DNA of 64,000 bases from Pyrodictiaceae archaeon (GTDB lineage Archaea; Thermoproteota; Thermoprotei_A; Sulfolobales; Pyrodictiaceae): assembly GCA_027036135.1 (NCBI GenBank), contig JALVSY010000007.1:868880-932879 (forward strand). Reading direction: 5' to 3'. The notes beneath the pieces were generated by a model, which did no database searches, had not been told where the DNA came from, and saw nothing but the letters and a program-made list of their open reading frames with translations. The position numbers and the translations under genes were made by a program. Below are positions 5,271 to 59,655 of this stretch, one piece after another; within the stretch, counting starts at the first letter, position 1; each line of letters opens with the position of its first letter.

Positions 5271-5711
5271 TTGCGGCGCCAAGCAACGCTCTATGTAAGA
5301 TGGGGGAAAGGAGGACTAGAACTAGAGCCGAGCACTCAAACATTGATTATTAGGGCAAAGAACTATGAAATCATGCTTGAGCCCCGCTCTATATTAATTA
5401 GCGGCAAATACAGTGGGAAGAGAGAAATAGAGCATATAAATAGGAAAACAATATTCATAGATTTCGCCGAGAAGGTTGAGCCCCTTAATCCCCCGAGAAT
5501 AGACATATCGGCGCGTAACTATGTTGGCAACTTCGAGGTCATCTATACCGATCTAGGGTTCGAACACTATCTAACAATAATAACGCCGGCAGAGCACCTA
5601 TACGATTATGCTGTTCTAACAACAGAGGAGTTCATGGTATATATGCAGGCTAAACGCCAAGTCTTCTACGAAGAAGAGCCTTTTGAGAAAATAATACTCT
5701 ACATAAAGTAA
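5271..5711 (+). CDS. Hypothetical protein
   Basis: 146-aa ORF downstream of the KaiC-like gene. Confidence 0.6.
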   Translation: MRRQATLYVRWGKGGLELEPSTQTLIIRAKNYEIMLEPRSILISGKYSGKREIEHINRKTIFIDFAEKVEPLNPPRIDISARNYVGNFEVIYTDLGFEHYLTIITPAEHLYDYAVLTTEEFMVYMQAKRQVFYEEEPFEKIILYIK

Positions 5712-6036
5712 GACGCATCAAGGGGACTAGCGCGCTATGGTTTTCCTCGCTCCTGTATTCTCCTCTCTATGTAGTTCAGGGTAGCACCTATTAGGTCCAA
5801 AGAAGAGGGTCACGTAAGAAAACACTCATCCACTATTGTTACCCGCGTATAGCAATCGGTTAGGATACCCGCTTAGGTGCTATGGCTCTCTCATTGTCAC
5901 CGAACCGACAAGTGGAATAGAAAATTCTACCTAAGACTAATCTAGTAATATCAGAGTATACTAGGACTCGGGTCTTCTCTTTCTATGAATCCAGATTAGA
6001 GTAGGGTGGTACAAATATAGTGTTTAGGGGTCAGCA

Positions 6037-9006
6037 GTGAGTACAAGGACTGACTACCAGCAATTAGAGCTTATAAAGAAGAGCCTCTTCGAGCCTAGCG
6101 CTGAGGACGAGGCTAAGAGGCTGCTTCTCCGCGAGATCTACGAAGTAGTGGTAAAGGCTTATCGGGAAAGGGCTCCTAACGATGGCTTATTGGCTCCGCT
6201 ACCTGACTGTGTCCGGAAGGCGTTGGAGACTGGTATGCCTTGTAGCGAGGACATGGGGTTTACCTATAACGCGATACGCGTACTGATGGCTAGGTATCTT
6301 ACCAGGGACGAGTATGGCCGCTACCTCGAGACTCCTAGCATGGTTATGCGGCGTGTGGCAGAGGGGTTCCGGGAGAGGGTTGACAGGGAGCAGTTGTATA
6401 GGATACTGATAGAGCGGCGCTTCGTGTTCAACTCACCTACGCTGTTCAACATGTATTGTGACGGAGCCCGGGGCACGCTAAGTGCTTGCTACGTTACCCC
6501 TGTCTACGATGATATGCGTGCCATAATGGATGCTGCTACGGTGCAGGCCCTGACCTTTAAGTGGGGTGGTGGCCAGGGCTTCAGCTTCAGCGAGCTAAGG
6601 CCACGCTGGGACATCGTCCGCGGCACCAGCGGCTACGCCTCCGGGCCCCTGAGCTTCATGCGCATCTTCGATACAGTGACCGAGATGGTGAAGCAGGGTG
6701 GTAAGCGCCGAGGAGCCAACATGGGGATAATGCACGCGTGGCACCCCGACATCTACAACCCCTGGTTCAACCCCTGGCACGCCCTGAGAAACACGTTGCC
6801 GCCCCAGCTACAAGCCCTCATAGACTCCGTGAAGCGATTAATCGAGTTCCTCGAGAAAGAGGGCTACGAGGTTGACCCAGCGTTTAAGGAGATGGTTGAG
6901 AAGCTTAGCGAGCCCGGGCCCAGCACGGTTGAGGACGCTGGCTTCATACAGGCCAAGGAGCCCCCGCTACAGGATGCCAACCTCACCAACTTCAACATAA
7001 GCGTCGGCGCCAACGACGCCTTCATGGAGGCTGTGCTAAGGGGCGAGGACTGGTGGATGGTTAACCCCCGGTTCAGCCGGGACCCCGGGACAGGTGTCTA
7101 TCGGCTACACCACACAGTCTCCCGGGCCACGGGTCTGGGCCGCCTAGGCGAGCTAATCGAGAAGCACCCCTGGCTCCTAGGGAGCCCCTACCTCAACATC
7201 TACGAAGACCTACTAAGCGAGGCCAAGGCCAAGGCACTAGAGGAGGCCAAGCGGGCCGGGTACACACCCGACCAGAAGAACCCCTACACGTGGCACATCC
7301 CCGCCCGAGAACTATGGGATAGGATAGTTGAGAACGCCTGGGCAGGCGGCGACCCTGGGCTCTTCTTCCCAGACAATCACAACAAGTGGAACCCCACCCC
7401 ATGGCTAGGAGCAGTCTACGGAACCAACCCATGCGGTGAACAGCCTCTCTACCCCTTTGAGTCATGCAACCTAGGCTCCATGAGCCTAGAGAAGTATGTG
7501 AGTAATGGAAGGTTTGATGTAGACAAGTTTATGCATGATGTACAAGTAGTCGTTGACGCGATGGACGCCGTTATTGATTATAACAGGCACCCCGACGAGA
7601 GACAAGTCAAGGCCAACAAGTTTACCCGGAAAATCGGCCTAGGCGTGATGGGGCTCGCGGATGCATTGGCCAAGCTCGGCTACCCCTATGACAGCGACGA
7701 GGCAGTCGCGTTCACGCTGATAGTCATGGCCGCCCTGGAGGTGTTTAGCTGGAAGAGGAGCTGGGAGCTCGGGGCCAAGCTCGGCCACGCCCCCGCCTAT
7801 GAGTGTAAGAGATACGACTGGCGGAACATGAAGTGCATGGAGAAGGGCGACCCCGAGGAACTCGTAGAGCTGCACACACCCGCTCTAGTCAAGGCAGCTA
7901 GGGTCATGAGCATAGAGGGTGATTGGGTCAAGATCAAGTACCACGATGTTGAGTTGCCCAGCGACGTGGCTAGGCACGTTGTCGGCGAGGCCAGAGAGAG
8001 GGTGGAGAACAGAGGTACCGTGAGGCTCGTCCCCGCGAGCGTCCTGGAGAAGGTCGCTAGGGGGGTCTTCGGGGTCACAAGGGAGGATTACTGGAAAGCC
8101 CTACAGATGAGCCCAGTAATGGTTGCTAATAGCCCGCGACACCTACTAGCACTAGCAATCTACAACCCTGAAGCCGCCTGGGAGCTACTCAAGACCTATG
8201 GTAGGCTGCTGGGGGCCAGGGCTCCCCGGAACACCGTTATGACCACCGTGGCCCCGACCGGCACCATAAGCATCATTGCCGGGACTAGTAGCGGTATCGA
8301 GCCCTACTTCGCCCTCGTCTACAAGAGAAAAGTGACTGTGGGAGAGTTCCTGGAGGTAGTGAGGCCGTTCCGCTCAAAGCTACTAGAGGCGGCCAGGAAG
8401 CACAACGTGCCAGAGCACGTGGTAGAGAGGATATACGAGATAATAAGCAGGCACAAGGGCTCGCTGCGCTGGGCTCTGGAAGAGGTACGGGACTACCTGC
8501 TACAAGAGGGGTTCCAGAACGGCTTCTTAGCAGAGATAGAGCGCCTAGCCAAACTCTTCCCGATGAGCATGGACTTCGACGTATGGTACCACCTAGCCCA
8601 CCAGATAGCGGCACAACTCTACGTAGACCAGGCAATCAGCAAGACCGTGAACCTCAGAAAGGAGGCAAGCAAGGACGAGGTATACACAGCCTACCTAGTC
8701 GCGTGGCTAGGAGGCCTCAAAGGAGTAACAGTGTACAGGGACGAAAGCAAAGGAGTACAAGTAATATACTTCGGAGGAGAACAGAAAGCAATACCAAGCA
8801 TACCCGTAAGAAAAAAGAAGCATGTAGAGAAAAAAGCAAAAAGAAAGATGAGAATGATACACCTAAAGAAGAGAATGAAGCTCTCAGAACTAGAGATGGA
8901 TGAAAAAGCGAGCGAGCTATTCGAAGCAAAAGTCGTTGAAACGGCTAGCGGAGAAGTTGTCGTAGAGCTAACAGAGAATAGCACATGTAAGACATGCGAG
9001 ATCTAA
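6037..9006 (+). CDS. nrdJ: Class II (adenosylcobalamin-dependent) ribonucleotide reductase
   Basis: NSPTL, LSACY, QGGKRRGA, TNPCGEQ, SCNLGS, APTGT, DQAISKT, LKGVTVYRD, C-terminal CxxC. Confidence 0.93.
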   Translation: MSTRTDYQQLELIKKSLFEPSAEDEAKRLLLREIYEVVVKAYRERAPNDGLLAPLPDCVRKALETGMPCSEDMGFTYNAIRVLMARYLTRDEYGRYLETPSMVMRRVAEGFRERVDREQLYRILIERRFVFNSPTLFNMYCDGARGTLSACYVTPVYDDMRAIMDAATVQALTFKWGGGQGFSFSELRPRWDIVRGTSGYASGPLSFMRIFDTVTEMVKQGGKRRGANMGIMHAWHPDIYNPWFNPWHALRNTLPPQLQALIDSVKRLIEFLEKEGYEVDPAFKEMVEKLSEPGPSTVEDAGFIQAKEPPLQDANLTNFNISVGANDAFMEAVLRGEDWWMVNPRFSRDPGTGVYRLHHTVSRATGLGRLGELIEKHPWLLGSPYLNIYEDLLSEAKAKALEEAKRAGYTPDQKNPYTWHIPARELWDRIVENAWAGGDPGLFFPDNHNKWNPTPWLGAVYGTNPCGEQPLYPFESCNLGSMSLEKYVSNGRFDVDKFMHDVQVVVDAMDAVIDYNRHPDERQVKANKFTRKIGLGVMGLADALAKLGYPYDSDEAVAFTLIVMAALEVFSWKRSWELGAKLGHAPAYECKRYDWRNMKCMEKGDPEELVELHTPALVKAARVMSIEGDWVKIKYHDVELPSDVARHVVGEARERVENRGTVRLVPASVLEKVARGVFGVTREDYWKALQMSPVMVANSPRHLLALAIYNPEAAWELLKTYGRLLGARAPRNTVMTTVAPTGTISIIAGTSSGIEPYFALVYKRKVTVGEFLEVVRPFRSKLLEAARKHNVPEHVVERIYEIISRHKGSLRWALEEVRDYLLQEGFQNGFLAEIERLAKLFPMSMDFDVWYHLAHQIAAQLYVDQAISKTVNLRKEASKDEVYTAYLVAWLGGLKGVTVYRDESKGVQVIYFGGEQKAIPSIPVRKKKHVEKKAKRKMRMIHLKKRMKLSELEMDEKASELFEAKVVETASGEVVVELTENSTCKTCEI

Positions 9007-9075
9007 AGGATTTATTCATAACCTTAACTTGTTTCACTCAATAATACTTACTCCTCTACCTTATCCCAAGGGTTT

Positions 9076-9960
9076 TTGGCTCCATCCTCCCCGTTAGGAG
9101 ACGTCTTTATGCGAACCAGTAGTGATGCGGTTATTCTACTTAACGTTTATGGTTGGCCCCGCATGGTTGTTGTCGCTGTCAAGGTCAGCCAGGGCAAGAC
9201 GTTCCTTAAGTCTGTGGAGCACTATGCCAGAGAGTACCCGTTCTGGGACGCTGTTGCATGGGCCGTACTGGCTGTTGACACTCCTTGCCTGGAGAGGCAG
9301 GGGTATGAGAGCGTACTGGAACATGTAGTTATCCAGTTCGTTGCCCGCTGCAGCAGGATATGCACACATGAGCTGGTTAGGCACCGCTTGGCGAGCTATG
9401 CGCAGACCAGTACCCGTGTGCTCGGGCTAGAGGGCTTCCGGCCAGATGACCGCGGCGCTGGTAGCCTCTACCCCCTAGTGGCCCGGGCCGCTGAGGGCGA
9501 CACGGAGGCTCTTCAAGTACTCTGCGTGATACCGGAGACTCACCGGGACAACGTCATCAGCGCGTGCAGAGAGTACATGAGGCGCGTAGTAGAGGCCCAG
9601 GGCAAGGGCATAGACCAGGGGCTCCGCTACGCCCAGCCCGACGCCCTAGCTGCACACATACTCGTCACGACAAACCTGCGCGAATACCTCCACATGGCCG
9701 CGATGAGGCTTCATCCCCACGCCCACTGGGAGATACGGCGACTCTTCGAAGAAACAGCCTATAAGCTGTGGATAGAACACCGTGTTCCAGTCCACCTAAT
9801 GCTGCTCCTCAAAAGACCGGGGCTCGCAAAAGTACGCAACGACCTAGTCGCCGCGGCTCTTGAAGAGCTTCAAACAATAACATCAAGAATTGAAGATATT
9901 CATGCCAAAAAACTCGAAGCATTAGCTAAGAGCATCCTCCATAATCAAGCGACGGCATAG
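9076..9960 (+). CDS. thyX: FAD-dependent thymidylate synthase
   Basis: RHRLASYAQTSTR signature, NLRE, AHWEIR. Confidence 0.9.
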   Translation: MAPSSPLGDVFMRTSSDAVILLNVYGWPRMVVVAVKVSQGKTFLKSVEHYAREYPFWDAVAWAVLAVDTPCLERQGYESVLEHVVIQFVARCSRICTHELVRHRLASYAQTSTRVLGLEGFRPDDRGAGSLYPLVARAAEGDTEALQVLCVIPETHRDNVISACREYMRRVVEAQGKGIDQGLRYAQPDALAAHILVTTNLREYLHMAAMRLHPHAHWEIRRLFEETAYKLWIEHRVPVHLMLLLKRPGLAKVRNDLVAAALEELQTITSRIEDIHAKKLEALAKSILHNQATA

Positions 9961-21887: not shown

Positions 21888-22040
21888 ATGGATGAGGCGT
21901 GTGCCGCGGGGTGCCGTGAGAGGCATTGCCGTGGCTCCTTCTGCGAGGCGGGTTATTGGCGCTGCCTCCTGGGCTGCGCCAGTGCCGAGGAAGCTGCGCG
22001 GCTCGCCAGCCTCTACTACGCCCTAGGCCTTATAGGGTGA
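21888..22040 (+). CDS. 50-aa Cys-rich microprotein (not in ORF track)
   Basis: MDEACAAGCRERHCRGSFCEAGYWRCLLGCASAEEAARLASLYYALGLIG; GGGGTGA upstream; its stop overlaps the next start (GTGA). Confidence 0.6.
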   Translation: MDEACAAGCRERHCRGSFCEAGYWRCLLGCASAEEAARLASLYYALGLIG

Positions 22041-22696
22041 GGAGCGCATTGGCTGCGGGGATTAGGCGCGGCGAGAAATACGTTGTCCGTAAAGTGAACG
22101 GTAGGTGGCCAGCCAAGCATACTGCAGGCCTAGACCCCGCGCTTGTGGGCCCGAGGGCCTTCGAGCACCCCGCGGTAAGGGCTTGGTGGGAGTGGCTGAG
22201 AAAGGAGTACAGGCCACAATACCCAGTAGCCCTGATTACTCCATGTAGCAGTGTGAAGCCCTACACCCGGAGCCCCACGTCGCGGAAGATACGTGGGCTG
22301 CTACGCCGCCTCGGCCTATGGAGCGATGCCAGCAATCAGCCCATTGGGTTGGAGTGGCTATACCTCAGCGACCTCCTGCTCCTAGTCCCCTATGAGCGGG
22401 CCGAGGGGTACCCCGCCTGCTGCTACGAGGTACCGCCCGAGGTCGTGCTCTGCAGCCCAGCGCTGCGCAGCCTAGTGACCAGTCTCCTCGCCGAAGTTGT
22501 GGAGAGGCTCTACGAGCGCGGATTGAGACGCGTCGTACTCTTCCTCCCCAAGAAGCACCTACGGCTCTGGAACGGGGCCAGGAAACGCGCGGTGAAGTGG
22601 CCGAGCGAGACGGTGACTAAGTACAGTATCTTCCGCTTCGACGGGCTCCCCCAAGCCCTCTCTCAGCTCCAAGGAGCTTTACAGGAGCTCCTGTAG
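22037..22696 (+). CDS. DUF5591 / archaeosine synthase ArcS-like domain protein
   Basis: LITPCSSVKPYTRSPT and LVPYE...YP..CY match the ArcS-type PCS..KPY..S motif; start GTG at 22037. Confidence 0.75.
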   Translation: MRSALAAGIRRGEKYVVRKVNGRWPAKHTAGLDPALVGPRAFEHPAVRAWWEWLRKEYRPQYPVALITPCSSVKPYTRSPTSRKIRGLLRRLGLWSDASNQPIGLEWLYLSDLLLLVPYERAEGYPACCYEVPPEVVLCSPALRSLVTSLLAEVVERLYERGLRRVVLFLPKKHLRLWNGARKRAVKWPSETVTKYSIFRFDGLPQALSQLQGALQELL

Positions 22697-22712
22697 CGGG
22701 GGGCGAGGCACC

Positions 22713-23642
22713 ATGGCTAGTCTGCGCAGCATAGCTGCTGGCCTCGGTGTGCCTTACTCCACGGCGTACGTCACGTTGGAGAGGTTGCTGGGGCTTAGGC
22801 CTCGCCACATAACAGCCATTGATAATTCTGATGACCAGATTATCAATGGGGATTATGTGGTCGCCGTAATTAGGTCTGTGCTGCTCTTGGCGAGGAATAG
22901 GCTAGAGTACTACACCATGCCGCCGATACCATTGTGGCCGTGGCTGCTTGTCCCCGTTAAGTCTGTAGACGTGTTGGAGAGGTTCCTCGCGGACATGGAG
23001 AGGCTTGGGGCGAGGCCCTCTGCTGTTATCCTCGACGTGGGGATAATGGAGTGGTTCAACAGAAAGACAATGGAGTATACCGGGGAGTTCTGGAGGGCTT
23101 TCTGGCACGGCGTCGACGCGGTGAGAGGGCTTGCCCGTAGATACAGGTTTGCGTGGAGGATTGTTCTCCCCGATGTACCCGCCACTGTTGAGGACAACAT
23201 CTCCCTCACCATGAGGTTGCAGGAGAGGCTGCTGGCGGAGCACCCCGAGCTGCCGTGGATACCTGTCGCGCAGGCCTCGAGGACTACTAGCCACTCTAAT
23301 CACCTAGCGTGGCTGGTTGAGACCGGGGTCGTGGAGAAGTATGGCTGCGTGGCGCTAGGCTCGCTCAAAGTACTGGCTGGCAGGAGGAAGCAGCTATGGA
23401 GGGACGCTGTAGACGGGGCTAGGGCTCTGCTCCACGAGCACGGCCTAGGCAGTGTTAAGCTGCACCTCTTCGGCGCCCCGCTGGACGCCGCCGTCTCCTC
23501 GAGGCTGCCGCCCGGCTCATGGGACTCGAAGACCTGGACCTTTCCCAGGGTGCCGTACCTGTGGAGCGCGAAGGATGGCTCGATGCGCGTAGTCTACTTC
23601 ACAACGTTCCTCGAGAGGCTCGTAGAGCTGCTGGCGGGGTGA
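22713..23642 (+). CDS. HTH-fused TGT/DpdA-like transglycosylase
   Basis: ILDVG, LPDVP, IPVAQ, ALGS, LHLFG, WDSKTW occur in TGT barrel order; N-terminal LRSIAAGLGVPYSTAY HTH. Confidence 0.7.
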   Translation: MASLRSIAAGLGVPYSTAYVTLERLLGLRPRHITAIDNSDDQIINGDYVVAVIRSVLLLARNRLEYYTMPPIPLWPWLLVPVKSVDVLERFLADMERLGARPSAVILDVGIMEWFNRKTMEYTGEFWRAFWHGVDAVRGLARRYRFAWRIVLPDVPATVEDNISLTMRLQERLLAEHPELPWIPVAQASRTTSHSNHLAWLVETGVVEKYGCVALGSLKVLAGRRKQLWRDAVDGARALLHEHGLGSVKLHLFGAPLDAAVSSRLPPGSWDSKTWTFPRVPYLWSAKDGSMRVVYFTTFLERLVELLAG

Positions 23643-24328: not shown

Positions 24329-24919
24329 GTGGTGAGCGTGGCGAGCCCGCGCTGGGCAGGGGAGAAGAGGAGCGCCGCGCTAGCAGCTGTTAACACTGTT
24401 CTCCCAGACATAGTTGGGCCCGCGAAGCGCATGGGGCTACTGGTTAGCGTTGAGTCCACCAAGGACCTGCGGGTCCACGTCGTCACAGTGGAGCTGCCTG
24501 GCTCCAAGCCCCTCATATTAGCACTCTACGCTACCACGGAGGAGTCTAGACCCATTACGTGGAGCAGGCTCGGGCCACGGCTAGAGAGGCTGGAGAAGCA
24601 CCGGGGGCGCTGGGCCCCGCCAGGCGGCGACACGCTCTACTTCGTGCTAGCCGCTTCCCCGAGGACACGTGTCACGGGCCCCGCGAGGAGGATGCTTGCC
24701 AGGAGAAAGGTGCTCTTCCTAACCCCGAGGAAGCTACGCCTCTGGTTCAACCGCTACTTCAACCGCCGCCTAGCAGGGCTAATAAAGAAGCTCAGAGCCA
24801 AGAAGGCCAAGGCGTACGACAAGCTCGCAGAGCTCCTCCGCGTCCTCTACCTCCTAGCCTCCAGGCTAGGACCAGTAACTATTAGCCTACACGAAGTCGA
24901 GGCCATGGTCCGCGCCTAG
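24329..24919 (+). CDS. Basic uncharacterised protein, candidate replication initiator; homolog of 58418-59077
   Basis: Last gene of a CopG-containing operon, followed by ~700 bp non-coding DNA; aligns by eye with the backbone ORF. Confidence 0.7.
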   Translation: MVSVASPRWAGEKRSAALAAVNTVLPDIVGPAKRMGLLVSVESTKDLRVHVVTVELPGSKPLILALYATTEESRPITWSRLGPRLERLEKHRGRWAPPGGDTLYFVLAASPRTRVTGPARRMLARRKVLFLTPRKLRLWFNRYFNRRLAGLIKKLRAKKAKAYDKLAELLRVLYLLASRLGPVTISLHEVEAMVRA

Positions 24920-25610
24920 CCCCCCTAGGCCCCCCTATGCGTATTTAGTTAAACAGTATTACTACCTTTTCTCCAAATAGCTAACAACACGTCATGGGTA
25001 ATACCATTACTTCTAAGAAGCTGCTCCCAGAGCATAGTCTCCTAGGCAACTTATCGGCTAACCTGTTCCCCGAAGCCATCTTCTATAAATCATAGGTTAA
25101 ACAAGGACGGGAGAAACTACTCTCCCTGCAAGGCCTGGGCCGATACTATTCCACGGCGTCGACAGCGTAGAGCTCACCCCGGGATCCTATATGGAGAGTA
25201 GAATAGCTTCGGCCTGGTACTGGCGCGGCTGCGTCCCTGGCCCCAGCTATGCCAGTGTATATCGCCTGACAACCATGACGAGGCAAGGCTTATCGCCTAA
25301 CCTGGCTGTAAAGCTACGTAATAGAGTTAGCCAAATGTCTTACCTGTTCTCCTCGAGCTGGCAGCTGTTAGCACGGTGTTATACAAGAGCTATGTGGAGT
25401 TGCACAGGGCTGGGCTCTCTTCGCCTGAGCTCTCAGCAATCACGCAGTGGGAGACAATAGCGGGCTAGAATATTATACAAAGTATTCTTTTTCTTAAGGT
25501 ATACATAGCATAGTTATAGTTGTTGTGTGTCGACGAGGGCTTCTTCCCAGTTGTTCTTTTGTTCTTGTTCTTGGTTTATGTGGCTCCAAGAATTGGACGC
25601 TGGGTTTAAA
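24920..25610. other. Non-coding region with repeated TCGCCT boxes; candidate replication origin of the element
   Basis: TTATCGGCTAACCTG 25051, ATATCGCCTGA 25259, TTATCGCCTAACCTG 25290, TCTTCGCCTGA 25418, then an AT-rich tract ~25468-25520. Confidence 0.45.
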
Positions 25611-25652
25611 TAGGTGTTTAGGGTACCCTAGAGGGTGGGTGGTGGCGTATTG

Positions 25653-26084
25653 GTGCAGCGGAAACAGCTGTGCCTCTACATTAACACGAGTATGTTGATA
25701 CGGGCGCTGGAGGACCCGGGGGCTCGGGAGTTCCTCGGGGAGTGCTGCTCTAGGCACCAATGTGTGGTTAGTAGTGTTCATTGGAGGGAGGAGTGGAGGC
25801 GTAACACTCTCACCAAGCTCGCCGGGCTCCTCATGGGGCTTGGCATTGCCACTGTGGAGGTTAATGTGGAGGTGCTTGAGGAGGAAGCTACAAGCCTCAT
25901 CGAGGAACGTGGCTGGAGCCCTAGGAGGCTCGTAGACCTCATGCACGTCCTCGCTGCTGTCGAGCTTGGCTGCCACGGGGTAATCGCCGTCGACAGGTTC
26001 ATGGCCAGGCGGGCAAAGGAATATGGCCTACTCTACGTCAACCAGTACACGGGGTGCCCAAAGGATGGGCAGGCTCTACCGTGA
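25653..26084 (+). CDS. PIN-domain (VapC-like) protein
   Basis: YINTS, REE, VDLMHVLAA, AVDR. Confidence 0.8.
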   Translation: MQRKQLCLYINTSMLIRALEDPGAREFLGECCSRHQCVVSSVHWREEWRRNTLTKLAGLLMGLGIATVEVNVEVLEEEATSLIEERGWSPRRLVDLMHVLAAVELGCHGVIAVDRFMARRAKEYGLLYVNQYTGCPKDGQALP

Positions 26085-27385: not shown

Positions 27386-30300
27386 TTGGGCTTGGCTCGG
27401 AGGGATGTTGAGAAGAGCCGTGTTCTCGGGGGCACCCATTATGTTGGCTGGGTTCGTCTAAGGCCACGCCTCGGCTATGAGAAGGAGTTTGCGCAGCTCG
27501 TGGCTATGAGCCCACATGTTGTGCTGGAGGCTCATCGGCTCGGGGACAGGCTCGAGTTCTATGCATGGATACGCGACATTGCGTTGCCGCTGCTTAGGCG
27601 CAGGGCTAGCGTGGAGCCCGTCGAGGAGCCTCCGCCTCTCACGCAGAAGTGGGTAGCCGAGCTACGGGCTCCGAGCGATGCCTGGGAGACTGGGGTCGAG
27701 GTCAGTGAGGCCTGGCTATCGGTATATGACTGGCTCTTGCCAGGTGAGGCGGTGCAGATTGTAGGGTTCTACGATATGAGGACGCACCGGGAACTCGCCA
27801 AGAAGGCTAGGCATTATAGGCTAGGCGAGAAACCGGAGCTGAAGGGGCTGGGGCCCCTCGAGTACCACAAGAAGGACCCGGATAGGGCAAGGCATCTCTC
27901 CCAGCTAAGCACTAAGAGGATCTACATAACAGCTGTCAGGTTCTACGCCGATGACAAGAAGCGTGTCAAGGAGCTCGGGGAGAGGGCTGCGGGCTTCTTC
28001 ACTCCGGCCCTCAGGGCTAGGGTGTCGAGGAGAGGGAACCTGGCCAAGCTGCGGGACCCCATGAGTCTCATGGGCAGGTTTCACCCCAGGAAAGAGTACC
28101 CCTGGATACCCCAGGATAGCTTCATGAACCTTGTGCGCCTCCCGCGGCCCGACGAGGTATCGGCCCGCCTCGACTTCGCCCGGGGCGCCGCCCTACCCCA
28201 GGTAGCTCCGAGGCCCCGGGGGCTGTGTATCAGGCTGGGGGAGCTGGAGAACGGCGAAGAGTACTGCCTGCCCCTCGAGGAGCTCCAGCGTCACGCATGG
28301 GTGATAGGCCAGACTGGCTCCGGCAAGTCCACGTTTCTCTGGAATCTCTCCCTAAGGCTGCTCGAGAAGGGCCGGGGAGCCGTAGTCGTCATCGACCCTC
28401 ACGGCGACCTCGCCTTCGACGTCCTCGAGTCGGCTCCACGGCTTGACCGCGTCTACCTTCTCGACCCTATGCGGAAACCCTTCGGCCTCAATCCTCTCGA
28501 CCTTCCTCGGCTCCCTGACCGGGGCCAGGCCGTGGCCCTCGCTGTGGACCACCTGATCACGATCTTCGAGAAGGTGCTGCGGTTGCCCGAGACGGCTGTG
28601 AATGTTCGCTACCTGTTACAGGTGCTCCTAAGATACATGTACGAGAGGATGGATTCCCCGACGCTGGGCGACGTCTATGCAGCGATAGTGGCGCTGTATC
28701 ATGGGCAGCTCGACCTACCTGTCGAGGACCCGGAGTGGCGGGTACAGGTTGAGGCACTGCAGCGGCTCCAGGATCAGACGTTCTTAAGTGCCCTCTCGAG
28801 GCTCGAGCCCTTCGCCAACCACCCCATACTTAGGAGGATAACCTCCCGGACCACGGTGCCTCTCGAGGAGGTGTTGCGGCCTGGTAGCCTGGTGCTGATT
28901 CGGCTCCCTAAGGGCGAGCTGGGCGAGTCCGTGCTCCGGCTCCTCGCGCCAGCCATAGTGCTCCGCCTATGGTTTTACGCCCTGGAGCGCGCGGCCCGCG
29001 GCGAGGAGAGGGCCCCGATCTATGTCGTCATAGACGAGTTCCAGAACCTCGCTGGGCTCCCCGTCGTGGAGACCATTCTCTCGGAGGCCCGTAAATACGG
29101 CCTCCACCTCGTCATGGCTCACCAGCATACCAAGCAGTTGCCCGAGGAGCTGCTCCAGAGCGTATTCAGCAACACTGGTGTCAAGGTGGTGTTCAGGGTG
29201 GGGGGCCAGGACCTCGAGAAGCTGAAGCAGCTAGACCCCGAGTTCGCCCAGGAGCTCGGCAAGGTTCTCGCAAGCCTCACTACTGGCCGCGCAGTGGTGA
29301 AGCGCTCTGGGCTCCCCGGCGAGGAGCCGCCGCCCCCAGCGCTGGTGAAGACCGATCCACCGCCGCGTAGACGGCTCAGCAACATAGGTGTAGTCGACAA
29401 GCTGCCCAGCTTCGCACCGCCCCCCGAGGAGCCCGGGGTCGATATAGTTGCTAGGCTGAACCCGGTGCTTCGTTATCTCCCAAGGGATAGGCTTGACCCG
29501 GTTGAGGCCTGGGTCTTGTTCCACGTCTATGAGGCGACGGAGGGTGGTTCCCGGGAGGAGCTGTGGAGTAATGTCTTGGTTCGGCTGGGGCTGCCGCGTA
29601 GCCGTGCCGATGAGGCCCGGAACAGTCTCGCGTCTAGGGGGTTGATCGAGGCGCGTAGGGAGGGGAACCGGTGGCTTGTTCGCTACGTGCGGGGGCTCTT
29701 TGAGGGTCTCCGCCAGGTTGCCCCGAGCGATGAGGGCTATGGTCTTGCTAGGCGTGCTCTGCTCTACTACTTCTCGAGGGGCTACGTGGTGTACCCTGCG
29801 AGGCAGGATCCTGGTTTGCCGGCGAGGCCGGATCTCGTGGCTATACCCTTTGACCCCTCCGGCATGAGCCTGAGGTACGATAGGGCGGTTGCGGTTGAGG
29901 TTGAGTCTTGTAACGAGCTCGGGACTCACCCTGAGCAAGTGATCCGGAACCTCCTCAAGCACTCCGGGGACGTGTTCGCGGAGGTCCACTTGTGGGCGCC
30001 GCTGGGCTGCAGGGGGAGGCTCGTGGAGATCCTCGCAAGGGTGGAGGGCAGGCTGCCGCTGCCGGTCAGGGTGATGCCGGAGGAGGAGCGCTCCGAGGCT
30101 GGCCATGGCGGCGGGCGCGCCGAGGCCGCCGGCATCGCTGGTGGTGCCGCTTCGCCTGCCCCCGCGGCTGCTGGTGGTGTTGCTGATGTCGGTGCTGGCG
30201 TGGCTGGCGGCGTCGAGGAGGAGGCTGTCGAGGGGGAGGCGCCGGGGGAGCAGCGCGTCGAGGGCGCTGGCGTCGGGGAGAAGCCCGTGGATGGGCAGCC

Positions 30301-30799
30301 TAGGGCTGGTGGGGAGCCTGGGGATCCCGGGCTGAGGCGGCTCTTGGAGGCCCAGGCCGAGCTGCTCGCGGCGATGGGCAAGGCCCAGGCGGAGATCCTC
30401 CAGGCCCAGAGGACCAGCCAGGAGAAGCTCAACAGGCTACTAGAGCTCCAGGAGCGCCAGACCCGGCTCCTAGAGCAGATGATAACCCTCCTAGAGCAGC
30501 TAGCCCGGAACAGACGGCACCGGGAAAGCACGCACGGAGAGATCACAGAGCCAGAGGAACCACCCAGAGACACGGAGACACCAGCAGGGACACCGGGGGA
30601 AGCCGGGAAGCCAGAGCAGCCAGACGGGCAGACATGCATCCCGGTAGAGCTAGACGAGCCCCCAGGCCAAACGGCCTGCCTACCGCCACAGGTGGCCCGG
30701 CTAGCAAACCAGTACCGCAAACAAGGCTACAAGCTAACCCAAACCCCAACCGGCAGAATATACGCAACCCGCAGAAACCGCCGAATCCCCCTATACTAG
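27386..30799 (+). CDS. VirD4/TraG-like coupling ATPase with C-terminal wHTH, PD-(D/E)XK-like domain and coiled coil
   Basis: HAWVIGQTGSGKS, IDPHGD, IDEFQN, EARKYG, AHQ; RPDLVA...AVEVES. Confidence 0.85.
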   Translation: MGLARRDVEKSRVLGGTHYVGWVRLRPRLGYEKEFAQLVAMSPHVVLEAHRLGDRLEFYAWIRDIALPLLRRRASVEPVEEPPPLTQKWVAELRAPSDAWETGVEVSEAWLSVYDWLLPGEAVQIVGFYDMRTHRELAKKARHYRLGEKPELKGLGPLEYHKKDPDRARHLSQLSTKRIYITAVRFYADDKKRVKELGERAAGFFTPALRARVSRRGNLAKLRDPMSLMGRFHPRKEYPWIPQDSFMNLVRLPRPDEVSARLDFARGAALPQVAPRPRGLCIRLGELENGEEYCLPLEELQRHAWVIGQTGSGKSTFLWNLSLRLLEKGRGAVVVIDPHGDLAFDVLESAPRLDRVYLLDPMRKPFGLNPLDLPRLPDRGQAVALAVDHLITIFEKVLRLPETAVNVRYLLQVLLRYMYERMDSPTLGDVYAAIVALYHGQLDLPVEDPEWRVQVEALQRLQDQTFLSALSRLEPFANHPILRRITSRTTVPLEEVLRPGSLVLIRLPKGELGESVLRLLAPAIVLRLWFYALERAARGEERAPIYVVIDEFQNLAGLPVVETILSEARKYGLHLVMAHQHTKQLPEELLQSVFSNTGVKVVFRVGGQDLEKLKQLDPEFAQELGKVLASLTTGRAVVKRSGLPGEEPPPPALVKTDPPPRRRLSNIGVVDKLPSFAPPPEEPGVDIVARLNPVLRYLPRDRLDPVEAWVLFHVYEATEGGSREELWSNVLVRLGLPRSRADEARNSLASRGLIEARREGNRWLVRYVRGLFEGLRQVAPSDEGYGLARRALLYYFSRGYVVYPARQDPGLPARPDLVAIPFDPSGMSLRYDRAVAVEVESCNELGTHPEQVIRNLLKHSGDVFAEVHLWAPLGCRGRLVEILARVEGRLPLPVRVMPEEERSEAGHGGGRAEAAGIAGGAASPAPAAAGGVADVGAGVAGGVEEEAVEGEAPGEQRVEGAGVGEKPVDGQPRAGGEPGDPGLRRLLEAQAELLAAMGKAQAEILQAQRTSQEKLNRLLELQERQTRLLEQMITLLEQLARNRRHRESTHGEITEPEEPPRDTETPAGTPGEAGKPEQPDGQTCIPVELDEPPGQTACLPPQVARLANQYRKQGYKLTQTPTGRIYATRRNRRIPLY

Positions 30800-31604: not shown

Positions 31605-32759
31605 TCATCCCCGCACAGCGGGGGCTATCAGGGCTCCATCTTGAACCCTCTGGGAGCCCCTCATCCGCGTGAGGCCCCTTAGCGCTAGGTTCCAAGCCGC
31701 TATGGTATCCCTTGTCGTGACAACATTGTTTGGTAGAAGCACCCAACGATAGTTCAGCCGCTTAACTGGGCCTATTGGCGATGTCTTGCTGGTGTCTCTC
31801 GCTGAAACATAGACTGCCCTTAGTCCTCTCCACGCCGCCTTGTACTCTATGAACTTTTGGAGCCGCCTGTAGGCTAGCTGCGTGAAGAGCCACGCTAGTT
31901 TATCGCTCCTCTCCGAGGCACGGCTTTTCAATCCCTTCAGGTTCTCCAGGACTATGAGAGAGTCGTACTTGTCCGCTATCTCTACTAGCTTCTTGGCTAC
32001 ACGGTGGGTGGCATCGTTGACTATGTTCTTGGCCCTCCTCATCCACCTAGCGTGGACACGACGAGACCACTTCATGAATCTCCAATGCCTCCCAATCCTC
32101 TTCTGCAACCTCTCAGCGAGTTTGCGGAGATGCAGCGCCTTCTTAAACCCCTTAAAGACTATAACGCCTGCCGTCACGATTCTACCAGTACTAGCGTCGA
32201 GAACAACGTAGCTGACGTTGTCAAGGTTGACGTCCACACCCATAACAGTTCTCGGCCTCCTCACCTCAACCTCTCTCTCAAGAGCAACATATACCTTGAA
32301 GCCACCGTCACGGTAGGATACCAGTAGCTCCTTGGGCTGCCACCCCTCGGCCATGAAGCGCTGGAGCCTGTTCACACCTCTTAGCTTTACCTCTACCCAG
32401 CCGCCGTTGAGCGCAGCTATCCTCAGCACCTTTTTCTCCGAGTCCAGCCTGTACTCGTAGGGATGGAGCCTGGCTGTCAGCCTCCTCAATAATGGCTTGG
32501 AGCCGCCGTTCCTCCTGGCTGCTTTCACTATCTCTTTGGCCCTCTTGTATATCTCGCTCACGTGGTGTGCGCGGAAGCCCCACTCGCGTAGCTCCCTGTA
32601 GAACATCTCGTGGAGCTGCCTAACAGTGGGAACCCTATCCATGCCCCATATCCTATCCACGGCGTACTGGACAGCGTCGCGGTACGCCCTGAGGAAGGCT
32701 AACAGGGGCTGGGGATTAGGGGCCACCCCTCCAAGCACAACGGTGGCATGTACCCTCAT
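31605..32759 (-). CDS. tnpB: TnpB RNA-guided nuclease
   Basis: RuvC D-E-D intact (GVDVN, VLENL, RDTIAAWN); Zn-finger cysteines absent (TSKTSPIG). Confidence 0.92.
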   Translation of the reverse strand: MRVHATVVLGGVAPNPQPLLAFLRAYRDAVQYAVDRIWGMDRVPTVRQLHEMFYRELREWGFRAHHVSEIYKRAKEIVKAARRNGGSKPLLRRLTARLHPYEYRLDSEKKVLRIAALNGGWVEVKLRGVNRLQRFMAEGWQPKELLVSYRDGGFKVYVALEREVEVRRPRTVMGVDVNLDNVSYVVLDASTGRIVTAGVIVFKGFKKALHLRKLAERLQKRIGRHWRFMKWSRRVHARWMRRAKNIVNDATHRVAKKLVEIADKYDSLIVLENLKGLKSRASERSDKLAWLFTQLAYRRLQKFIEYKAAWRGLRAVYVSARDTSKTSPIGPVKRLNYRWVLLPNNVVTTRDTIAAWNLALRGLTRMRGSQRVQDGALIAPAVRG

Positions 32760-32791
32760 CCCCCAGCCCCGAGCTAGAATATCGGGGAATA

Positions 32792-33454
32792 TCAGCCTGG
32801 TTTAAACCTTTCTGGCAGGGAGACACCCGTCTCCCTTAGAAACCGCAGGTTTGCCTCCACAAGCCTCTTCGCCCTGTGGCTTCTCCTGCCGTAGATACGG
32901 GCGGCAAAGCTAACGATAATCTCTACGAAGTCCTCTACCAGCTCCTCCAACGGCTCCTTCTCCGTCTTAAACGCCTCAACTATCTCCACGCCACACTGCC
33001 TGAAGAAGTACTCTAGGTACTCGAACCCGAACCTGGTGAGACGGTCACGATAGGTAACTAATACAACATCCACGCGGCGCTGGGTAACCATTCTCAAAAG
33101 CTTCCTAAGACCTCTACGGTTTGTCTTCAACCCGCTACCGATGTCTCGTATAATCTCTACGACTTGGTATCCACGCTCGGCAGCATACTTCCTCAACACC
33201 TCAACCTGCCTATCAAGGTCACCTTGCTTAGCCTGTTTATCGCTGCTAACACGGGCATAGATGACAGCACGAGGCTTCTCCACGAGCCTCATCTCTGGTG
33301 GCCTGAGCTTCTCAAACTCCTCAAGAGGGATTGCTAGACGGCCATTGGGTAGCCTCACAACCTTGAAGCGCCCCTGCTTAGCCCACTTCCACAACGTGAT
33401 ATAGGCCACTCCTAGCCGCTCAGCAGCCTCCTTAAGCAAAATGTAACGCTCCAC
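32792..33454 (-). CDS. tnpA: IS607 TnpA serine recombinase with MerR-type HTH
   Basis: EAAERLGV...LWKW; IYARVSS, DIGSGL, YRDRLTRFG, ARIYGRRS. Confidence 0.95.
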   Translation of the reverse strand: MERYILLKEAAERLGVAYITLWKWAKQGRFKVVRLPNGRLAIPLEEFEKLRPPEMRLVEKPRAVIYARVSSDKQAKQGDLDRQVEVLRKYAAERGYQVVEIIRDIGSGLKTNRRGLRKLLRMVTQRRVDVVLVTYRDRLTRFGFEYLEYFFRQCGVEIVEAFKTEKEPLEELVEDFVEIIVSFAARIYGRRSHRAKRLVEANLRFLRETGVSLPERFKPG

Positions 33455-41893: not shown

Positions 41894-43798
41894 TTACCAC
41901 TCTCCGGGCCTCGTCGAGAACACCCTCAGCTCCTCTGGCGTGGGCTGCACGTAGATGCGTAGACGCCAGCCACCAGCGACCCTGAGTATTCCCTGGCCAG
42001 GCTCGGCGTCGAGGAGCTGCTCCTCCTCCGCCTCGCTTAGATTATAGATGGGCTTAACCGCCTCCAGCGATGCCTCGTTCAGGCGTAGTAGAAGCACGGT
42101 GGCCGACTGCTCTAGGATTGTCCTGCCATGCTCGCTTCTCAGCACGTCGTGGGGCCTCTGGGTCGCGAACACGAAGTTAACGCCTTTCTTGCGACCCCTC
42201 CTCGCTATGTCGGCGAACATCAACATCAATGAGGGGTACTGGGCGAACATCCATCCCTCGTCTACTACTAGCAAGGAGTTGCGGAGCTGGGAGGAGACTA
42301 CGAGCGCTAGTAGTGCTCCTACCAGAGCCCTGGCGCGGCGGGACCTGATGCCGGCGAGCGCGTAGACAGCGCCCCTCCCTGTGGGGAGCGGGGGCTCTCC
42401 ACGGTATATCCACGAGTCGGCCTCGGCTGCTTTCAGGTAGTTCTCGAGCCCCGTGGCTCTCTCCTCGGCGAGCCTAGCTGCCTCCTCTAGGCTCTCGGAC
42501 TCGCCTAGAACGTCTACTAGCTCGCCTCGTAGCTCGTCGGGGACGCGGTAGTACTCCTGCACAATGTCCACGGCCTCGTCGAGCCCTATTACCCCCCTCC
42601 TCCACAGCCTGACAGGGTCCAGGCCTAGGCCTCCACGTTCCCCAGCAGCGTCCTTGCTTAGCTCGTAGCCCGCGAGGCCGGTAGCCAAGTACTCCCTAAT
42701 ACCAATGTACTCGGACTCAGGGTCTATGATTATGGTCTTCTGGCCCAGGCCAGCAGCCCACCACCTCCTCACATACACTTTCAGCGTCATGCTCTTACCT
42801 GAACCAGTCTCCCCCAGTACCACCACGTTGTAATTCGGCCTAGCATAGGGGTTGAAGACAACGGGCTCCCCGGTATCCAGGTCGTAGCCGAGATAGAGGC
42901 CGCCAAAGTCGACCAGCTGCTCCTGCACCAGAGGATACAATGCCTGCGCGCTCAGAGTATCGACATAATGGAATACCGGCACCGTCCACTCAAGATTATA
43001 TAATCGTCTCTGGTAGAACCCCGGGCCACTAGCATATTCTACCATCCTCGAGGCTAGGAGCTCCTCGAGGCGCCTGCTGCGCTCCCAGAGCTCCTCCTGG
43101 CTAGAACCCCTAACTACCAACACTATCGCTATCTTCACGAGCCGGGCCTTGCCTCCTAGGAGCTGTTGTAGCTGCTGGAGCTTGTATGCCTCCTGCTCTA
43201 GCTGCCAGGTCGTGGAGCCACGGAGCACTGATTGTAGCCTGAGAAGCCTCTGGTCAATCATCCTCCTCGCTTTAGCGGGCTCCACGGGCTCTATGAGGAA
43301 GTGTATCTCATCGGTAGCATAGATTAGCTCGAGGGGCCACGCCTCGGGCAGGCTGTCGGGCAGCTTGACAACAGTATACGCCCTAGCGTAACCGCCATCC
43401 TCTAGCTCGAGGATGCCGCGGGCTACGCGCCTCACTACAGGCCTGTAAGGCTCCGCTGCTGGCCTTGGCTCGTAGCCGAGCTGCATTAACAAGCCATAAT
43501 CCAGGCCCTCGGCGAAGAATAGGAGCCGGCGAAACTTGAAGCCCTCGATGCTGTCCCATGCTGCATAAATCGAGATACGAGCCTTATCATTGGCAGCGTT
43601 CAATAACGCGGTCCACTTAGATAGGAATCTGTCGCGCTCCTTCTCGGGGAGAGCCGCGAAGGGGTAGCCCTGGACCTGTAAAAGGAGGCTGAGCTCACTG
43701 CTTCTTGGGGCTCTCTTCCTCGCTCTTTGTTTCTCCCTCTGCCCCTGGCTTTGCTTCGACTTTGATAGGCTGGGCACGCTTCTCCCCGCTATAGACAC
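41894..43798 (-). CDS. VirB4/TrbE-like conjugation ATPase
   Basis: NYNVVVLGETGSGKS, IDPESEY, VVDEGW, RRGRK, ATQ. Confidence 0.9.
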   Translation of the reverse strand: MSIAGRSVPSLSKSKQSQGQREKQRARKRAPRSSELSLLLQVQGYPFAALPEKERDRFLSKWTALLNAANDKARISIYAAWDSIEGFKFRRLLFFAEGLDYGLLMQLGYEPRPAAEPYRPVVRRVARGILELEDGGYARAYTVVKLPDSLPEAWPLELIYATDEIHFLIEPVEPAKARRMIDQRLLRLQSVLRGSTTWQLEQEAYKLQQLQQLLGGKARLVKIAIVLVVRGSSQEELWERSRRLEELLASRMVEYASGPGFYQRRLYNLEWTVPVFHYVDTLSAQALYPLVQEQLVDFGGLYLGYDLDTGEPVVFNPYARPNYNVVVLGETGSGKSMTLKVYVRRWWAAGLGQKTIIIDPESEYIGIREYLATGLAGYELSKDAAGERGGLGLDPVRLWRRGVIGLDEAVDIVQEYYRVPDELRGELVDVLGESESLEEAARLAEERATGLENYLKAAEADSWIYRGEPPLPTGRGAVYALAGIRSRRARALVGALLALVVSSQLRNSLLVVDEGWMFAQYPSLMLMFADIARRGRKKGVNFVFATQRPHDVLRSEHGRTILEQSATVLLLRLNEASLEAVKPIYNLSEAEEEQLLDAEPGQGILRVAGGWRLRIYVQPTPEELRVFSTRPGEW

Positions 43799-46074: not shown

Positions 46075-46167
46075 TGGCGGCAGCCCTCTTATTCTGGACA
46101 GGAGCGTAACACCTTACAGCGACTCCGCTTATTCATTTCCACGAGAAATGCATGGAGCGCTGAAAGA

Positions 46168-53024: not shown

Positions 53025-53163
53025 TGGTGGGCCCGGGGGGATTTGAACCCCCGACCGCCGGGTCTCTCCCTCTCATCTAGGGCTCTTCGACAGACCCAGC
53101 GCCTGGACCGGATCCCGCAAGGGGCCTGGAGCCCGGCGCTCTGCCTGGCTGAGCTACGGGCCC
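53025..53163 (-). tRNA. tRNA-Trp (CCA) with 62-nt intron at 37/38 (53064-53125)
   Basis: GGGCCCGTAGCTCAG...CCGGG-CT-CCA-G/intron/A-CCCGG...GGTTCAAATCC...GGGCCCACCA. Confidence 0.95.
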
Positions 53164-59525: not shown

Positions 59526-59655
59526 CGGCCCGATCCCAGCTTGGGGGAGCTGCGGGGCCTCGCGGACCCCACAGCTACCCCCAACGCGGCCGGCTTAACT
59601 TCCGGGTTCGACAAGAGTCCGGGTGTTGCCCGGCCGCTATGGCCGGGTCGGGCCG
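59526..59655 (-). rRNA. rrf: 5S rRNA
   Basis: CGGCCATAGCGGCCGGGCAACACCCGGACTC...GAACCCGGAAGTTAAGCCG; paired termini. Confidence 0.95.

Follow-up and report, generated by a model that had tools for sequence, protein, structure and literature searches.

The closest described counterpart of the system reported here is whiP/oriC3 of Sulfolobus. According to the accessible parts of PMC3607249 and PMC4010727, WhiP binds motifs directly downstream of the whiP gene, where oriC3 fires without an origin recognition box (ORB), and origins are thought to arise through capture of extrachromosomal elements. Here we describe a comparable arrangement in a stretch of 64,000 nucleotides (the window) from a Pyrodictiaceae archaeon (assembly GCA_027036135.1, contig JALVSY010000007.1, positions 868,880 to 932,879 of the forward strand). 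In this window a small gene is followed by gene-free DNA bearing short direct repeats, once in an integrated conjugative element and once in the host backbone. We refer to the gene and its downstream DNA together as the cassette, and to its relatives as the family.

The likeness to whiP/oriC3, which has a matching origin in Aeropyrum, lies in a small non-Orc gene with motifs and an initiation zone directly downstream and no ORB. The proteins differ: WhiP, compared here by description only, is a tandem winged-helix, Cdt1-like protein, whereas the family protein is predicted to have a nuclease-like alpha-beta-beta-beta-alpha-beta fold followed by helices. The status of the two also differs, in that whiP/oriC3 was proven by genetics and the cassette is a candidate known from sequence. 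Bacterial iteron theta origins offer a second parallel, with an initiator gene beside phased direct repeats and an A+T-rich stretch, and with a site sequence that co-varies with the Rep lineage. They contain 3–7 iterons bound by winged-helix Rep proteins. The cassette, by comparison, has two phased repeats plus one distant repeat, a protein of another fold and no DnaA box. In the rtp/Ter system of Bacillus subtilis, the gene for a small DNA-binding protein also adjoins its own paired sites; these are inverted, fork-arresting pairs, and the occurrence of the cassette in viruses and plasmids is not what would be expected of a terminator. Finally, the PD-(D/E)xK proteins AF1548, NucS/EndoMS, Can2/Cdn1 and Hjc have a core of ~100–120 residues in common with the family, but the family has no conserved (D/E)xK and is extended by an extra long helix at its N terminus and by helices at its C-terminal end.

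The cassette is also part of the Sulfolobus conjugative plasmids (the pNOB8, pING, pARN and pKEF9 family), for which sections B and C have been defined. In the accessible parts of PMC4390865, a CopG-containing cluster of small genes in these plasmids is said to serve replication, section B is described as a large ORF-free repeat region with the word TCTATACCCCC located after the TraG and ORF142 homologs, and an initiator yet to be found must exist for crenarchaeal conjugative plasmids. The putative origin in section B is a different stretch from the cassette, 2.7 kb away in pING1. A gene for a binding protein with adjacent cognate repeats on replicons is a known kind of arrangement; its novel aspects here are the fold of the protein, the site geometry and an occurrence that extends from viruses of the Sulfolobales to chromosomes of the Pyrodictiaceae. 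Neither the family gene nor its downstream repeats are mentioned in the accessible parts of PMC3984812, PMC12141716, PMC4010727, PMC3607249, PMC11065993, PMC4390865, PMC3839810 and PMC4872121, and no paper on the family was found in the open literature, of which supplementary ORF tables could name the gene.

Two copies of the cassette in the window

A preliminary description of this DNA, made from the sequence by eye, had aligned the ORFs at 24329–24919 (plus strand; 196 aa) and 58418–59077 (minus strand; 219 aa). BLASTP confirmed their homology, with 32% identity over 185 columns (62.4 bits, E = 8e-17). The former is the copy in the integrated conjugative element, belongs to the element clade of the family tree and has counterparts at the equivalent place in four related elements; the latter is a syntenic chromosomal copy, which we call type 1 and for which an AlphaFold2 model was obtained. 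Their stop codons, at 24917–24919 and 58420–58418, respectively, are followed by gene-free cis regions of 715 bp in the element (24920–25634, plus strand) and 602 bp in the chromosome (57816–58417, minus strand, flanked by convergent genes), neither of which has an Rfam match.

The description had further listed four motifs occurring in the same order downstream of both genes. All four are present, in identical order and on the gene strand, with slightly corrected coordinates. A post-stop word with the consensus TAAACAGTAT(T/A)ACT lies ~30 bp beyond the stop codon at both loci, as TAAACAGTATTACT in the element (24950–24963, plus strand) and TAAACAGTATAACT in the chromosome (58377–58390, minus strand). 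It is followed by box A, which reads ATCGCCTG at 25261–25268 (plus) and again at 58102–58109 (minus), and by box B, for which the two loci give the consensus TATCGCCTAA(C/T)-N6-GTAAA. Box B is TATCGCCTAAC-N6-GTAAA in the element (25291–25312, plus, with TATCGCCTAAC itself at 25291–25301) and TATCGCCTAAT-N6-GTAAA in the chromosome (58058–58079, minus, with the word itself at 58079–58069). The ATCGCCT cores of boxes A and B are exactly 31 bp apart at both loci, as previously noted, and the corrected starts of the boxes are 25261/25291 and 58109/58079. Box C (TCGCCTG; 25421–25427, plus, and 57923–57929, minus) is found 129–149 bp after box B and is preceded in both copies by the words ATACAAG, TGGAG and AGGGC. 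Last comes an end block with the consensus TAG(T/A)AT...A/GAGTA.TCTTT, comprising TAGAAT-N-AAAGTATTCTTTTTC in the element (25466–25493, plus) and TAGTAT-N-GAGTAGTCTTTCTC in the chromosome (57862–57889, minus). The A+T-rich tract, the fourth of the motifs originally listed, holds the block at both loci, and in the element A+T-rich DNA also follows it.

Base composition dips at both copies. The 1-kb bin at 58001–59000, which holds the chromosomal copy, has a G+C content of 0.406, the minimum of the 64 bins of the window, and the bin at 25001–26000 (0.527) is the minimum within the left half of the element. When up to one mismatch was allowed in each box, the pattern of boxes A and B at 31 bp occurred twice in the 2.2-Mb genome, at the two window loci.

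Conservation of the boxes in related genomes

The family gene was identified in 15 of 41 related genomes (host genome included), all from one GTDB family and from 4 of 24 genera, and the first profile found no family gene in 16 genomes from 12 other families of the order. The host genome carries four copies, two of them in the window and one each on contigs C16 and C32. At 22 of 30 loci in these genomes, a pair of boxes A and B separated by 30–32 bp follows the gene, 230–390 bp beyond its stop codon. A variant box A (ATCAATTG, ATCAACTG or ATCAACCG), accompanied by a box B of TATCAACT or TATCGCCT, is present at six further loci, bringing the total with boxes to 28 of 30. The two loci without boxes, L030 and L034, may be decayed or re-purposed cassettes. 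L030 (also L004; G000:C32:8917–9555) is the fourth and most divergent copy in the host genome, encoding 230 aa, and an 87-codon ORF stands directly after it.

An alignment of 23 cis regions revealed invariant or almost invariant blocks, namely box A, box B with its GTAA, a CAGGA block, box C and the end block, separated by spacers of variable length. The post-stop word and the ATACAAG and TGGAG words are limited to close relatives, and boxes of the TCGCCT type occur throughout the family, as does the end block. Public DNA was also scanned with a loose pattern, and of the pattern matches listed, among 141 new loci screened, only L086 was a true cassette; a second family match, L035, came from a separate search rather than from the DNA pattern.

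Using a 61-row profile, we detected the gene in 34 of 351 genomes class-wide. Within the host's family, the host genome excluded, it is present in 18 of 28 genomes, from genera g1 (4/4), g3 (4/4), g9 (1/1) and g11 (9/9). The remaining matches are scattered over other families: f8 (4/67), f10 (4/63), f13 (3/47), f2 (1/52), f7 (1/8), f14 (1/2) and f16 (1/1). At all 14 distant loci examined, no long frame is found within 700 nt after the stop codon (longest stop-to-stop frames of 51–107 codons), and almost everywhere the gene is followed by 600–900 bp of gene-free DNA. This DNA contains pairs of direct repeats 31–32 bp apart, usually with a third repeat farther on, and then a TAGTAT...AAGTA block.

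The repeat word itself differs between lineages. It is TATCGCCT or TATCAACT in the host's family and its elements, with TATCGCCT also at L226, L227 and L229; TATCAACTG at L210, L215 and L223, as well as at L230, where the repeats are reversed relative to the gene; TAGTGCA(A/T)GTA at L231 and L232; and TGAACAGA at L233, in the viruses SMV3 and ATV and in the plasmids pING1 and pAH1. SMV1 and L228 are exceptions. On a rapidly computed maximum-likelihood tree with midpoint rooting and long branches, the proteins form virus/plasmid-like, TCAACTG, element, type 2 and type 1 clades, and the box types track these clades. Comparison of motifs among homologs, which had been suggested as a check on the module, thus showed a box word that changes with the protein clade at a constant spacing of 31–32 bp. 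In a blind test based on 11-mers, the best or tied-best repeat pair had a spacing of 30–32 at 23 of 43 loci compared to 5–15 loci in 20 composition-preserving shuffles, a difference that cannot be read as a probability because the loci are related. Joint evolution of protein and site with a fixed geometry of three helical turns is the signature expected of a specific protein–DNA complex, and from this co-variation we infer that the family protein binds these repeats.

Fixed positions in host chromosomes

Two syntenic chromosomal loci, conserved across four genera of the host's family, emerged when gene order was mapped in the host genome and in five complete genomes. The type 1 locus, represented by the backbone copy in the window, is constantly located between clusters c2–c1 and c19...c14, and the type 2 locus, on contig C16 of the host genome, is constantly located between the genes for fructose-bisphosphatase and ABCE1. 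In a genus of the same family that has no family gene (0 of 3 genomes, one of which is complete), the ABCE1 and phosphatase genes are 800 bp apart, and the DNA between them is other sequence, with neither the gene nor the boxes. As the boxes are missing from the syntenic place together with the gene, the two come and go as one. This joint gain and loss and the boxes at 28 of 30 loci support the original proposal that the protein and its downstream DNA form one unit. Its presence both in the mobile element and in the backbone was likewise correctly noted, but is not peculiar to this pair of element and host. The distribution is best read as the capture of two cassettes by an ancestor of the four genera and their retention at fixed chromosomal positions. 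In the window, a 5S rRNA gene (59531–59650, minus strand) precedes the chromosomal family gene by ~450 bp.

Plasmids and viruses of the Sulfolobales

When the type 2 protein was used as the tblastn query, 11 phage records were matched (best E = 1e-3), including ATV ORF240, SMV1 gp42, SMV3 gp66 and relatives, together with 5 plasmid records. Two of the latter, pING1 and pAH1, are named in the annotation, and we take the remaining accessions to be pARN3, pARN4 and pHVE14. The element copy, used as the query against the same plasmids and phages, gave no match. Profile–profile comparison gave a probability of 97.2% (E = 3.4e-11, hhalign) for a 218-aa ORF of pING1 and 95.0% (E = 3.9e-8) for SMV3 gp66, and both alignments contain the motifs Y-x-S-x-Q-x-S-x-P-x-x-P-x-Q and T-x-G-A.

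Here too the gene is followed by a gap in the annotation (SMV3, 646 bp; SMV1, 645 bp; pING1, 882 bp; pAH1, 694 bp), and in ATV the 667 bp after the gene contain only a 45-codon ORF. In pING1, pAH1, SMV3 and ATV, TGAACAGA is found at +225–228 and +257–260 from the stop codon, 32 bp apart, with a third copy, exact or with one mismatch, at +331–334, followed by TAGTATACTG.AAA.GTAAC (the TAGTATAC block) at +363–366. Box positions agree within 3 nt across the four replicons. Judged by these motifs, the arrangement matches the one in the Pyrodictiaceae, with the TAGTATAC...AAGTA block recognisably the same. The preliminary description had alluded to pNOB8-type plasmids, in which a CopG-containing operon of small genes adjoins the putative origin; the cassette is physically there, near the CopG small-gene cluster, but the published putative origin lies elsewhere.

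Three bicaudaviruses and pING1 (L201, L202, L203 and L235) additionally contain a CTAAyTCTATCrAC-like word 16–21 nt beyond the stop codon, followed by a conserved T-run and then ...TTGTAATAAA; the word includes TATCAAC, which is the box word of other lineages. In SMV1 (L234), the cassette region has a G+C content of 0.334 and is the most A+T-rich part of the genome, and skew in this virus is dominated by gene orientation. A gene annotated as a 'DnaA-like replication initiation protein' is found at 45579–46502 of SMV1, 2.5 kb from the cassette.

Predicted fold of the family protein

No Pfam family was found at the cut-off for either window protein or among 61 aligned members of the family, and the NCBIfam and PADLOC libraries likewise contained no match. 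AAA+ and Cdc6 families, the hallmark of Orc1/Cdc6 initiators, were not matched by the window proteins or by the 61 members. In PHROGs, the type 2 protein is matched by phrog_17932 (E = 3.6e-8), to which no function is assigned. A word-indexed protein search returned 7 relatives, and HMMER with a 9-row profile returned 67 at E ≤ 0.001 and 20 at E ≤ 1e-30 from 1.84 billion representatives.

The AlphaFold2 model of the chromosomal type 1 protein, built from the 61-sequence alignment, has a pLDDT of 95 and a pTM of 0.90. It comprises a long N-terminal helix, a beta-beta-beta-alpha-beta-alpha-beta core and then helices (helix 5–36; strands 44–48, 54–59 and 67–74; helix 83–100; strand 109–116). The top Foldseek matches were MspJI (E = 3.9e-4), EndoMS/NucS, AspBHI and AF1548. 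In a structural alignment against 48,161 chains, restriction-endonuclease-like domains led the results and were matched over residues ~1–154, with Z scores of 8.8 for AF1548 (rmsd 3.2 over 99 residues), 8.7 for Cdn1, 8.4 for Can2, 8.1 for VC1899, 7.7 for NucS, 7.3–7.5 for the nickase BspD6I and 5.8 for Hjc; scores of 8–9 are moderate by the aligner's own note, and most of the top matches come from one superfamily. A profile match to EndoMS was weak (E = 0.24), and in the ESM Atlas the leads, to Mrr_cat and PDDEXK_3 clusters, were weak as well. We assign the nuclease fold because so many of the structural matches belong to a single superfamily, that of PD-(D/E)xK proteins, whose core alpha-beta-beta-beta-alpha-beta fold is seen in the predicted model.

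Several polar residues are conserved among the 61 members: N17 (in 55), Y72 (60), S/T74 (60), Q76 (51), D/E109 (53), T121 (60) and R153 (59). The catalytic D...(D/E)xK of the superfamily is not conserved among them. Strand 3 bears Y72-x-S/T74 and conserves neither an acid nor a lysine, conservation of the D that precedes strand 2 is under the 60% listing threshold and D/E109 is the sole well-kept acid, the catalytic positions having been read from secondary structure rather than from superposition. We read the family as having a remodelled, probably non-hydrolytic, nuclease fold that serves in recognising DNA, and it might perform Tyr-based chemistry. The nuclease fold is far from an enzyme family unrelated to nucleic-acid binding, which had been named at the outset as an outcome that would speak against the module.

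A possible replicator

The preliminary description proposed a candidate initiator and origin. The conserved unit, its co-variation and its action at the DNA level stand, and the initiator or origin role is drawn by analogy with whiP/oriC3 and iteron plasmids. A replicator–initiator pair like whiP/oriC3 is our preferred reading of the cassette, at a chance slightly under even. A broader claim is somewhat more tentative: that the family is a new archaeal initiator class on a remodelled restriction-endonuclease fold, specifying Orc1-independent origins through two phased repeats, that it supplies the missing initiator/origin pair of Sulfolobus conjugative plasmids and bicaudaviruses, and that it was captured twice as chromosomal origins in four genera. 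The replicator reading is favoured by the host range, the lack of a partner NTPase, the A+T-rich DNA and the whiP/oriC3 precedent, since replication is the most obvious function common to plasmids, viruses, integrated elements and chromosomes. The layout of an initiator cassette, with a gene, repeats and A+T-rich DNA side by side, is present at 28 of the 30 loci in related genomes as well as in the members from plasmids and viruses. The earlier remark that no Orc1/Cdc6, MCM, primase or rolling-circle replication (RCR) Rep gene is recognisable in the element held for the 20 large element ORFs that were scanned, which also matched no other replication family.

In the mechanism that we propose, the family protein would be a sequence-specific DNA binder with an N-terminal PD-(D/E)xK-type domain, from which the classical catalytic motif has been lost, and a basic, helical C-terminal portion. 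Its targets would be the short direct repeats 200–500 bp downstream of its own stop codon. As a spacing of 31–32 bp corresponds to three helical turns, the repeats would be presented on the same face of the DNA; a third repeat usually lies farther on, beside the TAGTAT...AAGTA block and A+T-rich DNA. As with WhiP at oriC3, the protein would mark the site, after which the adjacent A+T-rich DNA would be opened and the helicase loaded there. The cassette would be self-contained on crenarchaeal mobile elements, that is, conjugative plasmids, integrated elements and bicaudaviruses, and a third copy, in the window, rides on the resident integrated conjugative element.

Several observations weigh against a replicator. 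In pING1, the published origin word TCTATACCCCC occurs at 5701 and 5748 (span 5701–5758), so that the putative Sulfolobus-plasmid origin of section B, itself proposed in silico, is 2.7 kb from the cassette DNA at 8474–9355, and the word is absent, at up to one mismatch, from 6.2 kb around the pING1 cassette. The type 1 locus is 26–42 kb from an Orc1/Cdc6 gene in the five complete genomes and the host genome (host Cdc6_C genes at C30:72888–73175 and C7:953325–953600), and the four candidate sites all fall within 22–44% of the circle, an odd spacing if all of them fire. Cumulative skews do not turn clearly at the type 1 locus when the inserted element is discounted, and the contig of the type 2 locus has its purine-skew minimum no more than 5 kb from that locus; however, an ORB-type candidate origin on contig C30 is also unmarked by skew, which makes skew uninformative here. 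There are only 2–3 repeats compared to the long arrays of iteron origins, no ORB-like element is present, and the distribution is patchy, with 0 matches in seven other genera of the host's family, one complete genome included. Lastly, a nuclease-fold protein with a conserved Tyr could fit a nicking or recombination enzyme equally well.

Known origin sequences were compared with the family loci as well. A genome-wide search with a short ORB core gave 12 matches, none of them at family loci and none clustered. The candidate on C30 (L177:1567–2188; G000:C30, ~69.5–70.2 kb) consists of perfect 12-nt inverted repeats, GGAACCCGGGAC and GTCCCGGGTTCC, with adjacent G-rich runs, that flank an A+T-rich gene-free region of ~590–598 bp located 1.8 kb upstream of an Orc1/Cdc6 gene. 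It is a candidate canonical ORB-type origin and has no motif in common with the cassette. The Sulfolobus origin word ucm is bound by UBP according to the accessible part of PMC12141716, from whose printed wild-type and mutated oligonucleotides we derived an 11-bp form. Positions 25472–25482 of the window (ATTATACAAAG) match it at 10 of 11 bases. We rejected ucm as a feature of the family, as the mean best match of 7.30 over 23 loci was also reached by 48 of 500 permuted motifs.

The putative origins put forward for conjugative plasmids of crenarchaea and for large spindle-shaped viruses are based on repeat-spotting and skew. The cassette provides a concrete candidate pair of protein and site with predicted lineage-specific changes in specificity. 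It occurs in the genetically tractable Sulfolobus systems pING1, pAH1 and SMV1. If it is an origin, its two syntenic chromosomal copies would represent a second independent capture of origins from mobile elements, beside whiP/oriC3, and a non-Orc, non-winged-helix initiator would join the archaeal repertoire. Even if it is not, a gene–site unit of constant geometry is a clean model for the co-evolution of protein and DNA at very high temperature.

Alternative explanations

Many of the same features would also suit an element that maintains replicons without being an origin, with the protein forming a centromere-like, copy-number/incompatibility or fork-arrest (Tus/RTP-like) complex on the repeats. 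A gene with cognate repeats, helical phasing and a spread over many replicons fit such a role equally well, and the published proposal of a separate plasmid origin (2.7 kb from the cassette in pING1), the DnaA-like gene that SMV1 itself carries 2.5 kb from its cassette and the proximity of the type 1 locus to an Orc1/Cdc6 gene all point in that direction. We nevertheless consider a maintenance element unlikely: the chromosomal neighbours are housekeeping genes with no ParA/ParM/TubZ-type NTPase beside the family gene, the 20 scanned element ORFs contain no ParA-, ParM- or TubZ-type match, the repeats number only 2–3 and the section B origin is likewise an in silico proposal. Less probable again, and distinctly unlikely, is a site-specific nicking or strand-transfer enzyme that acts through the invariant Tyr, with the boxes positioning DNA processing at a conjugative transfer origin, at a rolling-circle or recombination-dependent start or in multimer resolution. 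This would make good use of the nuclease-like fold and of the conserved Y72, S/T74, Q76, D/E109, T121 and R153, as well as of the position of the cassette in elements, between the small-gene cluster and the TraG-like gene; moreover, no relaxase is known in archaeal conjugative plasmids, at least from the accessible parts of PMC4390865. However, the cassette is also carried by non-conjugative viruses and by stable syntenic chromosomal loci, and the protein family has not conserved the D...(D/E)xK residues that classically bind metal.

The preliminary description had named a module of protein and non-coding RNA as its alternative, and in this case the downstream DNA would encode a non-coding RNA or a long 3' untranslated region acting with the protein, and the boxes would be RNA motifs. 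Motif order and strand relative to the gene are constant at almost every locus, the end block is followed by a T-rich run and short hairpins could form in some A–B spacers, all of which would be compatible with a transcript. Yet RNAalifold found 0 pairs in the 23-sequence alignment, and the 310-nt cores (n = 23) folded no better than dinucleotide shuffles on either strand (mean folding z: gene strand, −0.22; opposite strand, −0.39). Rfam 15 at the gathering score detected only two tRNAs and the 5S rRNA in the window, with none at the cassettes, and permissive scans of both cis regions gave only E ≥ 1.5. The region is A+T-rich, whereas structured RNAs of hyperthermophiles are G+C-rich. Being same-sense copies of one word, the boxes are unable to pair among themselves; GCC and AAC occur as alleles at equivalent positions of different boxes, and at L230 the repeats are inverted relative to the gene. 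Same-sense copies with interchangeable alleles behave as binding sites rather than helices, and given the lack of pairs, the shuffle-level folding, the absence of Rfam matches and the A+T-richness, we treat the cis region as a DNA element. Action at the DNA level rather than as a structured RNA is thus the best reading of the sequence, and we regard an RNA as very improbable. The least probable alternative, with little to commend it, is an ordinary regulatory intergenic region in which the protein is a transcription factor whose gene happens to have its operators on the downstream side. Many sequence-specific binding proteins have sites close to their genes and the end block includes a TATA-like stretch, but the downstream gene differs between all kinds of locus (a convergent gene at type 1, fructose-bisphosphatase at type 2 and small unrelated genes in elements, plasmids and viruses), and 600–900 bp of gene-free DNA have been retained in compact genomes.

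The integrated conjugative element

The G+C-rich stretch at ~19–53 kb of the window (19000–53200) is an integrated conjugative element. It includes a TraG/VirD4-like gene (27386–30799), a HerA/VirB4-like ATPase gene (41894–43798), genes for a secretion ATPase and platform-like proteins (46168–49609) and an integrase gene (51920–52795). Gene order around the cassette is kept in the related elements L188, L191 and L086, running from a DUF5591-like gene through a 309-aa gene, a small gene and the family gene to the gene-free DNA, small genes and the TraG-like gene; L086 is a metagenome contig that ends before the first genes of this order. The DUF5591-like gene and the Pfam-less 309-aa gene (21926–23642), upstream of the family gene, are 64–73% identical to their counterparts in L188 and L191 and may form a DNA- or RNA-base modification pair. 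Beside the integrase gene, a tRNA match of 136 nt (53028–53163, minus strand) was detected by Rfam but not by ARAGORN, and on account of this discrepancy the tRNA probably carries an intron. The element also contains an inserted IS607-like insertion sequence (31605–33454), in which a TnpB-like gene with Cas12f1-like TNB and OrfB_IS605 domains stands beside a helix-turn-helix serine recombinase gene. Just beside this insertion, at 34–36 kb, the G+C content is 0.44–0.46.

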